From a virus, in UHGV virus genome UHGV-1634937: a stretch of DNA of 22,898 nt, one strand, 5' to 3'. The translations under genes and the position numbers were made by a program. Below the pieces are notes generated by a model that saw only the letters and a program-made list of their open reading frames with translations, was not told the origin of the DNA and did no database searches. Positions 21,529 to 22,898 of this stretch are shown here, piece after piece (positions within the stretch are counted from its first letter, which is position 1; each line of letters starts with the position of its first letter).

Positions 21529-21545
21529 AAATTTATTAGAGCAAT
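21529..21545 (-). promoter_or_regulatory. C1-operator-like site, perfect 17/17, with overlapping promoter
   Basis: Minus-strand reading ATTGCTCTAATAAATTT; -35 TTGCTC (21544-21539), 17-bp spacer, -10 TAATAT (21521-21516); overlaps the last codons and stop of the methyltransferase gene. Confidence 0.6.
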
Positions 21546-22898
21546 ATTGCTATAACGTCATGAGCAACACCTCGAGTGTCCCCCTTACAAGACACAGAAC
21601 GTCTGGCAAAAAGAGGTTCCACTCTGAAGCCACTGTCCTGATAAAGTTCTCTGATGTTTGGCGCGCCACTGTTAGTAATGAGAACCTTTGCACCTCGGCG
21701 ATGAGCATCCGTCAACAGAGACACCAGGCGTTTTTGCTCTTCAAACTTAAAGTCATGACCGGAATAGTTCGTGAATCCCTCTGTATTTGGGAGCGGTTCA
21801 TACGGCGGATCGCAAAAGATGACATCTCCTTCTCCGGCAGCTTCAATCACCGCAGCAAAATCACCACATACAAACTCAGAACGCCCTTCCGCACCAAGGA
21901 AGGCTTCCATCTCCTGCAATGGGAAATACGGAGTTTTATACTTCCCATAACCGACATTGAACTCACCGGCTTGGTTGTAACGCGTCAATCCGTTAAAACA
22001 ATGTCGGTTCAGGAACAAAAACGCCGCTGCGCGATGTAAATCATCATAGACTTGTTTGTTAAACGCATTCCGTACTGCCAGGTATCCTTCCTGCGTGTTG
22101 TAGTCCTGGAAGAAACGATGTGCCAGAGTGATAAGTGAATGCGCCTCGCGTTGCAGAGTCTTGTAAAAGTTAATCAGGTCAGCATTCACATCATTTAGCA
22201 GATTTTCCTGGTATCCGGCATTCATGAAGACAGCTCCGCCACCAACGAAAGGTTCAATCAGGCGCTTCCCTTCTGGCAAATAGCGAAAGATTTGTTCCAG
22301 AACACCAAATTTTCCACCAGCCCATTTGAATATGGACCGTTCGAATTCTGCCGCTGGTTTAACTTTTCGCTCTTTTGTTTCACTTCCTTCTTTCTGCCGA
22401 CATGCAGCCTTGGTAATCCGCTCGCCAATCCAGCGCATTACTGGTATCGCCATACTATTGCCGATCGCTTTGTAACGAGGTCCGTCAGCTGCAAGCATGG
22501 CGGCCTCTTCTTCACTTAAATCAGGATCGTGATTGCGAAGGTATATAAGTTCATCTGAAGTAACTTTCTTACGCTTTCCCGTTGGAATCAACGTATGTCC
22601 ATCAGGAAAACCTTGCAGCCTTTCACATTCGACAGGAGTCAGACGGCGAACGCTCATCATATGAGGTAAGTAACCATTCTCACCTAATTCGCCTTTTTCA
22701 ATACTTTCCTGCCCCCAAAAAGATAACGCAACGGCGTCAGCTGTTGCGCGGGAATCAAGAGTAAAACTTATCTCTTTTTGCCACCCTTTACCCTGCGGTC
22801 CAGCATCATCTTTTCGCCCAATTTGTGCATGTTGTAGCGAATACGCAACAGCTGACGCCGTTGCGTTATCTTTTTGGGGGCAGGAAAGTATTGAAAAA
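21536..22898 (-). CDS. dmt: DNA methyltransferase: C5-cytosine MTase C-terminal motifs fused in frame to a Dam-family N6-adenine MTase domain; 5' end outside the window
   Basis: Dam motifs FKWAGGK and DPPY with overall similarity to E. coli Dam; upstream in the same frame, with no stop, are m5C motifs IX/X (RRLTPVECERLQGFPD ... YKAIGNSMAIPV); frame stays open to 22898. Symbol is the P1 name, from memory. Confidence 0.7.
   Translation of the reverse strand, partial: FSILSCPQKDNATASAVAYSLQHAQIGRKDDAGPQGKGWQKEISFTLDSRATADAVALSFWGQESIEKGELGENGYLPHMMSVRRLTPVECERLQGFPDGHTLIPTGKRKKVTSDELIYLRNHDPDLSEEEAAMLAADGPRYKAIGNSMAIPVMRWIGERITKAACRQKEGSETKERKVKPAAEFERSIFKWAGGKFGVLEQIFRYLPEGKRLIEPFVGGGAVFMNAGYQENLLNDVNADLINFYKTLQREAHSLITLAHRFFQDYNTQEGYLAVRNAFNKQVYDDLHRAAAFLFLNRHCFNGLTRYNQAGEFNVGYGKYKTPYFPLQEMEAFLGAEGRSEFVCGDFAAVIEAAGEGDVIFCDPPYEPLPNTEGFTNYSGHDFKFEEQKRLVSLLTDAHRRGAKVLITNSGAPNIRELYQDSGFRVEPLFARRSVSCKGDTRGVAHDVIAILL
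22694..22748. repeat. left arm of a perfect 55-bp inverted repeat
   Basis: Exact reverse complement of 22844-22898. Confidence 0.9.
22844..22898. repeat. right arm of a perfect 55-bp inverted repeat (reaches the window edge)
   Basis: Exact reverse complement of 22694-22748; 95-bp spacer between arms. Confidence 0.9.

Follow-up and report, generated by a model that had tools for sequence, protein, structure and literature searches.

The dmt gene of a P1-like phage-plasmid, a fused cytosine and adenine DNA methyltransferase gene whose relatives differ in their target-recognition regions

The dmt locus at the contig end

The window considered here, a stretch of 22,898 nucleotides from the virus genome UHGV-1634937, shares ~99% identity with many Escherichia coli plasmids across 22 kb and 98% with Punavirus phages, and is collinear over its whole length with P1-like plasmids. 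The gene order is that of P1, namely tail genes, dbn, ban (dnaB-like), tRNA(CAT), tRNA-Thr, tRNA-Asn and a dicF-like leader, and these measures place the window in an E. coli phage-plasmid of the P1-like kind (Punavirus). When the window and, within it, the non-coding stretch 19700-21560 were scanned with Rfam, nothing scored above threshold except the three tRNAs.

At the end of the contig, the minus strand can be translated from 22897 to 21536 as 453 sense codons without a stop, followed by a TAA at 21538-21536; the two remaining frames contain stops throughout. A first-pass annotation, made from the sequence alone, had described this frame as a single open reading frame joining C5-cytosine and N6-adenine methyltransferase modules, a description borne out by Pfam matches to both PF00145 and PF02086. 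The match to PF02086 (D12 N6-adenine methyltransferase; E=1.5e-57, 195.7 bits) spans residues 192-425 of the fragment and positions 1-243 of the 253 in the profile; it is full-length, lies above the gathering cutoff, which is 22 bits for both families, and has the motif order X-I-...-IV (DPPY). Upstream of it, where a domain search had been expected to find C5 motifs, residues 41-105 match PF00145 (C5 methyltransferase; E=2e-6, 27.9 bits) over the C-terminal part of the profile only (positions 224-297 of 324). Together, the two domain matches are far beyond chance expectation.

The motifs that the first-pass annotation had quoted were all located in frame (Table 1), with a 42-residue insert between C5 motifs IX and X. 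The portion of the C5 half that falls in the window comprises motifs IX and X and the last module of the target-recognition region (TRD), while the contig stops short of motifs I-VIII and most of the TRD, which make up the N-terminal two thirds of the C5 module. Between the two modules there is no stop codon, as had been claimed, but the accompanying claim, that internal start codons are lacking, is wrong. In-frame ATG codons occur at 22660, 22657, 22498, 22453 and 22438, the last three of them between the modules, and an in-frame TTG occurs at 22591.

Table 1. Features at the dmt end of the window, in order of position
Feature	Position	Strand	Basis or remark
Bivalent C1 repressor operator (P1 Oban/Op72ab) and Pban promoter region	21518-21545		Consensus match, P1 annotation
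Genuine 3' part of dmt	21536-22854	-	438 codons plus TAA; approximately residues 370-807 of the 807-aa SJ46-type Dmt
Complete D12/alpha-class Dam domain	21539-22330	-	Pfam, match to E. coli Dam
Dam catalytic DPPY	21800-21811	-	
Dam DNA-reading beta-hairpin	21935-22012	-	
Dam motif I, EPFVGGGAVF	22226-22255	-	
Dam motif X, FKWAGGK	22310-22330	-	
Inter-domain linker, MRWIGERITKAACRQKEGSETKERKVKPAAEFERSI	22331-22438	-	36 residues
C5 methyltransferase motif X, YKAIGNSMAIPV	22439-22474	-	Pfam, motif location
In-frame ATG, M134 of the fragment	22498-22500	-	GAGG 5 nt upstream; candidate internal start for a Dam-only product
C5 methyltransferase motif IX, RRLTPVECERLQGFPD	22601-22648	-	Pfam, M.HhaI alignment, motif location
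Last module(s) of the C5 target-recognition (variable) region	22649-22852	-	SJ46-type allele
Module AVAY...ISFTLDSRATADAVALSF	22718-22771	-	Followed by tail WGQESIEKGELGENGYLPHMMSV
Fold-back	22855-22898		Copy of 22694-22737; of the 55-nt arm, only the first 11 nt (CGCAACAGCTG) are real gene

The first-pass annotation had found this putatively bifunctional enzyme reminiscent of the Dmt protein of phage P1, and the locus is in fact dmt itself. In megablast comparisons the nucleotide sequence is 95-96% identical to dmt of P1, P7, RCS47 and SJ46, with 95.7% identity to SJ46 up to position 22854. As in P1, the gene sits directly upstream of the C1-controlled Pban/Oban region, the dicF-like leader, the tRNA-Asn and tRNA-Thr genes, and ban. 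Also as in P1, an exact match to the C1 operator consensus, ATTGCTCTAATAAATTT, lies on the minus strand at 21529-21545 and overlaps the dmt stop codon at 21536-21538; six C1-operator-like sites were counted against 0.08 expected. The gene is thus an already known one, dmt of the P1 family in a published, SJ46-type allele, and we are confident that the region represents the 3' 54% of this fused DNA methyltransferase gene, truncated where the contig ends. Ever since the P1 genome paper, dmt has reportedly been annotated as bifunctional. The P1 RefSeq record describes the product as a 'bifunctional DNA methyltransferase; methylates DNA at N6 adenine in GATC sequences and perhaps at C5 cytosine', and places dmt as the third and last gene of a uhr-hrdC-dmt operon that is preceded by a C1-controlled Pdmt/Odmt operator.

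Two features of the open frame could in principle have been produced by sequencing or assembly, and the evidence points in opposite directions for the two. That the single frame was created by an erroneous fusion of two neighbouring genes is an idea with next to no probability, because the fusion, with the C5 enzyme N-terminal to a D12 Dam domain, is found by Pfam and alignment in the fragment and in full-length relatives alike. All 82 loci retrieved keep one frame across it, and P1, P7, SJ46, 80 IMG/VR loci and the matches listed among thousands of proteins likewise read through without interruption. More than 7,800 database proteins were matched, and all of the 120 matches listed, except a few fragments, contain both Pfam domains; the full-length relative L004, for instance, matches PF00145 with 126 bits and also PF02086. 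Conservation thus rules out a sequencing artefact as the source of the fusion. The name that NCBI gives to most of these proteins is 'Dam family site-specific DNA-(adenine-N6)-methyltransferase'. One database protein is mis-named 'multidrug DMT transporter permease'.

The contig end itself is another matter. The window closes, at 22844-22898, with 55 nt that match the reverse complement of 22694-22748 at 100%; the two arms form the only long inverted repeat within the 22.9 kb. The match to SJ46, to the IMG/VR loci L003 and L004 and to 44 complete plasmids ends at 22854 in every case; past this point, the gene of these relatives continues as ...CCACCAGCTGTTGCG. Because homology stops there, positions 22855-22898 and the first 15 residues of the translation (FSILSCPQKDNATAS) are placed outside the gene. 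The open reading frame proposed in the first-pass annotation, 21536-22898, is accordingly upheld up to 22854 only. It is conceivable, if very improbable, that the terminal repeat records a real rearrangement, an inversion or snap-back in the TRD-coding region that altered specificity: the gene has a natural 11-bp inverted repeat (CAGCTGTTGCG / CGCAACAGCTG) exactly at the junction, the fold-back leaves the frame open, and the TRDs of dmt are clearly recombinogenic. However, an arm of exactly 55 nt at the very end of a contig is the mark left where a k=55 de Bruijn graph ends, the junction is absent from the 44 complete plasmids and from eight IMG/VR loci carrying the same allele, and 15 codons would stay open by chance about half the time. 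The fold-back is therefore treated as an artefact, most likely one of k=55 assembly or of a chimeric read.

Comparison with known methyltransferases

Among the closest known counterparts of the fragment is the Dmt of Salmonella phage SJ46 (YP_009293579.1, 807 aa), which is the same gene in the same position with the same TRD type, and is 94% identical in amino acid sequence over the fragment. The IMG/VR loci L003 and L004, likewise of this TRD type, reach 100% and 99%, and the window differs from its SJ46-type relatives by few substitutions only. P1 Dmt (Dam; YP_006537.1, 754 aa) and its P7 counterpart occupy the same operon position, have the same order of C5 enzyme, linker and Dam domain, and carry a C1 operator over the stop codon. 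The first-pass annotation was right that the C5 motifs are N-terminal to the Dam domain in this DNA; it erred in setting this order apart from that of P1, whose Dmt is arranged identically in the alignment. Motifs IX and X, the linker and the Dam domain of P1 and P7 are nearly identical to those of the window, the Dam half being ~97-99% identical to that of P1 and nearly invariant in a three-way alignment of the window, P1 and SJ46. Among Dmt lineages more widely, the linker differs in sequence and length. The TRD between motifs VIII and IX, in contrast, is 173 aa long in P1 but 226 aa long in the SJ46 type, and the part of it that lies within the window has no significant similarity to the P1 TRD. 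The cytosine target therefore probably differs from that of P1.

The Dam half matches E. coli Dam (EcoDam; PDB 2G1P) with E=4.7e-58 over 261 residues. The DPPY and FxGxG motifs and the N-terminal KWAGGK are conserved. EcoDam, DpnM (2DPM) and T4 Dam (1YFJ) are D12/alpha-class adenine methyltransferases acting on GATC, and none of the three is fused behind a C5 enzyme as the Dam half is here. EcoDam residue K9 and the hairpin residues N120, L122, R124 and Y138 are conserved, while the hairpin carries the changes P134 to G, Y119 to F and R137 to K. The residues with which EcoDam reads GATC, which we take to be K9, L122, R124 and P134, are thus present in the Dam half in three of four cases.

Relatives of the C5 half are more scattered. 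Among structures in the PDB, sequence searches reached only M.HhaI and M.HaeIII, and through the catalytic motifs, so that no specificity can be transferred from them. The C5 methyltransferases of Bacillus phages, namely M.SPRI, M.Phi3TI and M.SPBetaI, are multispecific enzymes in which one catalytic core is combined with a long variable region of several short modules between motifs VIII and IX. Dmt may be likened to them in architecture by its pattern of putative modules, each with a (P)T(L/V), that are shuffled between alleles; unlike Dmt, they have no Dam domain fused to them. Stand-alone C5 methyltransferases of proteobacterial phages and prophages, such as the methylase of Vibrio phage CP-T1 and the 'DNA cytosine methyltransferase' proteins of Citrobacter koseri and Xenorhabdus, have TRD modules in common with Dmt at 40-70% identity and possess the same CSGIEA / PCQ / ENV / QRRRR core, without the Dam fusion. 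In one of these proteins, P0127, the C5 methyltransferase is joined instead to a different adenine methyltransferase family, PF05869.

Target-recognition modules and an intein in related genes

The homology of P1, P7, RCS47 and most plasmids to the window ends at 22648-22654, just past motif IX toward the 5' side of the gene, whereas that of SJ46 and a minority of plasmids runs on to 22854. Positions 22655-22854 are matched by 44 complete plasmids, 11 of them at 100% identity. By this comparison, the TRD of the window is of the rarer SJ46 type and not of the P1 type. The window holds the last ~68 residues of an SJ46/long-type array, its nearest relatives being the 226-aa loci L003 and L004; the tail WGQESIEKGELGENGYLPHMMSV aligns with residues 248-283 of M.HhaI, which form the TL-loop region. 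When a large protein collection was searched with the TRD alone, no match was longer than 356 aa, and a full-length SJ46-type Dmt was not among them.

Across the 82 loci, the distance between motifs VIII and IX takes four values, 173 aa in the P1 type, which is the commonest, 91 aa in a short type, 226 aa in the SJ46 type and 281 aa in a long type. Two further architectures among the protein matches (P0005/P0059 and P0038) bring the series to at least six, with lengths of 91, ~129, 173, ~181, 226 and 281 aa. These architectures are mosaics of common discrete modules. The sole module of the 91-aa type (MAHGQGGAEI..PTLTCNHEAPIV) is module 2 of the SJ46 type, both P1 modules (ASTVKARDFKDATDLAV and GTLRAR.QESHEHL) are found inside the 281-aa type, and the first and the last two modules are common to the 281-aa and SJ46 types. 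The same modules recur in stand-alone C5 methylases of Vibrio phages, Citrobacter, Xenorhabdus and one alphaproteobacterium. On this pattern, the SJ46 type found in the window would be a four-module array, module periodicity being defined here by the visual recurrence of motifs and by the cassette boundaries between alleles. BLAST comparison of the TRD arrays with themselves yielded no significant internal repeats. An AlphaFold2 model of P0038 (762 aa, from a 96-sequence alignment) has a pLDDT of ~90 in the C5 catalytic core and low values in the linker (residues 474-500); pLDDT falls below 50 across the TRD array (235-385) and over most of the Dam half, where the alignment is shallow or mis-registered, and the model does not bear on the independence of the TRD modules.

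A different kind of insertion interrupts the C5 core in 24 of the 82 loci. Exactly in motif IV, between GTP and CQAFS, these genes contain 341 additional residues that begin CFTAGHMV, include LAGAYVGDGYI and FLQGYLDTDGT, and end GAVVHN. Pfam matches to Hint, intein-splicing and LAGLIDADG domains identify the insertion, at the level of sequence, as a homing-endonuclease intein whose +1 residue is the catalytic cysteine. The intein co-occurs with the 91-, 173- and 226-aa TRD types, and its distribution across three types therefore indicates homing. One carrier is L003, whose protein is identical to the fragment in the window; the motif IV site lies beyond the window. In the literature searched, no description was found of an intein in Dmt, nor of mosaicism in its TRD.

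These observations suggest a tentative model for the P1 family, one that we consider possible but hold at less than even probability. The C5 half of Dmt may be a cassette-built multispecific methyltransferase, in which tandem 'xPTLx...AV' modules are swapped among phage-plasmids and unrelated phage methylases, so that each allele would provide its own multi-site shield against restriction, with a LAGLIDADG intein at the catalytic-cysteine codon spreading independently of TRD type.

Predicted activities of the two halves

The full-length Dmt, 807 aa in the closest intein-free relative, would be one polypeptide in which a C5 methyltransferase, consisting of motifs I-VIII, a long variable target-recognition region and then motifs IX and X, is followed by a linker of ~35 aa and an EcoDam-like N6-adenine methyltransferase. 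Because dmt lies behind the C1-controlled Pdmt/Odmt in P1, as part of the C1-repressed uhr-hrdC-dmt operon, the protein is expected to be made upon derepression of the prophage. The Dam half is predicted to methylate GATC. This target is almost certain, since the domain is near-identical to P1 Dam and matches EcoDam with contact residues conserved; the first-pass annotation, which had left the specificities open, needs correcting for adenine. P1 requires GATC methylation at pac for cleavage and packaging, and dmt is essential in Dam- hosts (review, PMC12707154).

For the C5 half, a catalytic activity, one or more targets and an anti-restriction role are what we infer from the comparisons above. 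The C5 half would methylate phage DNA before packaging, at cytosine sites set by the TRD allele, here the SJ46 type, and this methylation would protect the DNA from type II restriction once it enters a new host. Full-length relatives possess all of the C5 catalytic motifs, namely motif I GxxCSGIE(A), PCQ, ENV, QRRRR, IX and X. Mean pairwise dN/dS is 0.13 and 0.12 in the C5 core segments, 0.22 in the segment from IX to X plus the linker, and 0.10 in Dam, and purifying selection (dN/dS ~0.1) thus acts on both halves. Because the motifs are intact in the relatives and selection on the C5 half is as strong as that on Dam, we consider it likely that the C5 half is active. Searches of the literature on Dmt and on phage C5 methylation found no experimental report of Dmt-made 5-methylcytosine, and no experimental determination of a Dmt C5 target was found in the literature searched.

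Two readings that would reduce Dmt, wholly or in part, to its adenine methyltransferase deserve consideration. The C5 half might be a relic, or might serve as a structural or DNA-binding appendage only, leaving a protein that is functionally Dam only. GATC methylation for pac cleavage is indeed the sole documented function, the P1 annotation qualifies the C5 activity with 'perhaps', and the NCBI name refers to the adenine activity. Such a relic is nonetheless improbable: every catalytic motif is intact in relatives, dN/dS in the C5 core (0.12-0.13) is as low as in Dam, the intein is maintained precisely at the catalytic cysteine with the reading frame kept, and the TRD is reshuffled among alleles without loss of frame, which is hard to reconcile with a dead domain. 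The other reading concerns translation, whereby a Dam-only protein of ~320 aa would be made from the internal ATG at 22498, either besides or instead of the fusion protein. This codon has an SD-like GAGG, and gene callers have given Dam-only products of 320-351 aa in some records (P0030, P0034). Yet the ATG belongs to the C5 stretch that links motifs IX and X, whose conservation accounts for that of its residues, a second Dam lineage has no conserved start codon close to the N-terminus of Dam, and none of the 82 loci has a stop between the modules, making such a product, on balance, unlikely. A single Dmt protein with an adenine methyltransferase half and a probably active C5 half is the reading adopted here.

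The dmt gene is present in thousands of sequenced phage-plasmids of E. coli, Salmonella and E. albertii, and the 'Dam family' labels assigned by pipelines hide its cytosine-methylase half. P1-like phage-plasmids are important carriers of resistance genes, and the range of hosts open to them may depend on the restriction systems that each allele evades. With at least six architectures, the specificity region of Dmt is a hot spot of cassette exchange, and, if the multispecific reading of the C5 half is true, each Dmt allele would confer a different multi-site restriction shield. Exchange is also seen in the adenine methyltransferase half, where the second Dam lineage, of ~72% identity, recombines independently of the C5 alleles.

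An intein in motif IV of dmt

In relatives of the window, rather than in the window itself, C5 motif IV of dmt, the gene for the fused C5-cytosine and Dam-type N6-adenine methyltransferase, is interrupted by an intein of 341 aa that contains a LAGLIDADG homing endonuclease. The junctions, marked here by slashes (GTP/C...VVHN/CQAFS), make the catalytic Cys the +1 residue. The intein is carried by 24 of the 82 P1-like loci compared (L003, L012, L016, L022, L030, L033, L037, L043, L048, L052, L053, L056, L059, L060, L063-L065, L067, L070, L073 and L076-L079), where it is found together with three different types of target-recognition region (TRD), and its dN/dS is 0.24. 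No mention of an intein in dmt motif IV was found in the searchable literature.

Mosaicism and recombination within dmt

Between C5 motifs VIII and IX, P1-family Dmt proteins (the 82 loci and database proteins P0005, P0038, P0059 and P0096) possess at least six mosaic architectures, with spacings of 91, about 129, 173, about 181, 226 and 281 aa, assembled from a shared stock of short modules, which unrelated phage C5 methylases contain too; the window holds only the last module of the array. This modular region looks like the tandem TRDs of multispecific enzymes. In proteins P0033, P0096, P0059 and P0038 the Dam domain belongs to a second lineage (FKWVGGKFSELP...), with about 72% identity, and is joined to the same C5 alleles. 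One of them, P0033, is chimeric, its lineage switch lying inside the Dam domain, and recombination has thus occurred within dmt.

A further database protein, P0127, consists of a C5 methylase fragment that has TRD modules in common with Dmt, but the adenine methylase fused at its C-terminus is of another family, PF05869 (phage Dam); P0127 is an independent C5 and N6-adenine fusion. The 762-aa Dmt P0073 is called a 'multidrug DMT transporter permease' in one NCBI record, evidently through confusion of the gene symbol dmt with the DMT superfamily.

The window end and neighboring features

One arm of a perfect inverted repeat of 55 nt runs to the very last base of the contig, and a natural inverted repeat of 11 nt served as its nucleus. 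The structure probably arose as a fold-back during assembly with k=55, and lengthens the dmt ORF by 15 spurious codons.

Coordinates of features (window positions unless a locus is named)
Feature	Position	Strand	Detail
dmt intein	L003:2096-3118		341 aa, LAGLIDADG
Last VIII-IX module	22649-22852		
Inverted repeat	22694-22748 / 22844-22898		
ban-leader repeats	19900-21290	-	
Hairpin example	20187-20209 / 20264-20286		91% pairing
SPFH/Band-7 lipoprotein and overlapping ORF	18734-19778	-	lipoprotein Pfam E=1e-30
tRNA-Met(CAT)	18631-18706	-	ARAGORN
Further candidate C1 operators	5330-5346, 7422-7438, 7471-7487, 11095-11111		17-bp consensus, 1-3 mismatches

In the leader of the ban operon a repeat unit recurs three to four times; its conserved boxes, TTCAYCACAACGGTAAGRGCACT and GAGAATGCYCTTACCTGTTRYG, pair as hairpins, and the array may represent a repeated structured RNA. 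Rfam gave no above-threshold match in this region (STnc100 was sub-threshold at 19812-19932). P1 records annotate small ORFs, upl and plp, on the opposite strand.

The 275-aa SPFH/Band-7 lipoprotein and its overlapping 78-aa membrane ORF, a variant also found in many P1-like plasmids, take the place of tciA-tciB-tciC in P1. The P1 homologue of the tRNA that ARAGORN calls tRNA-Met(CAT) is annotated as tRNA-Ile2 (CAT, lysidine-modified). Matches to the operator consensus of the C1 repressor number six in the window, versus 0.08 expected by chance.
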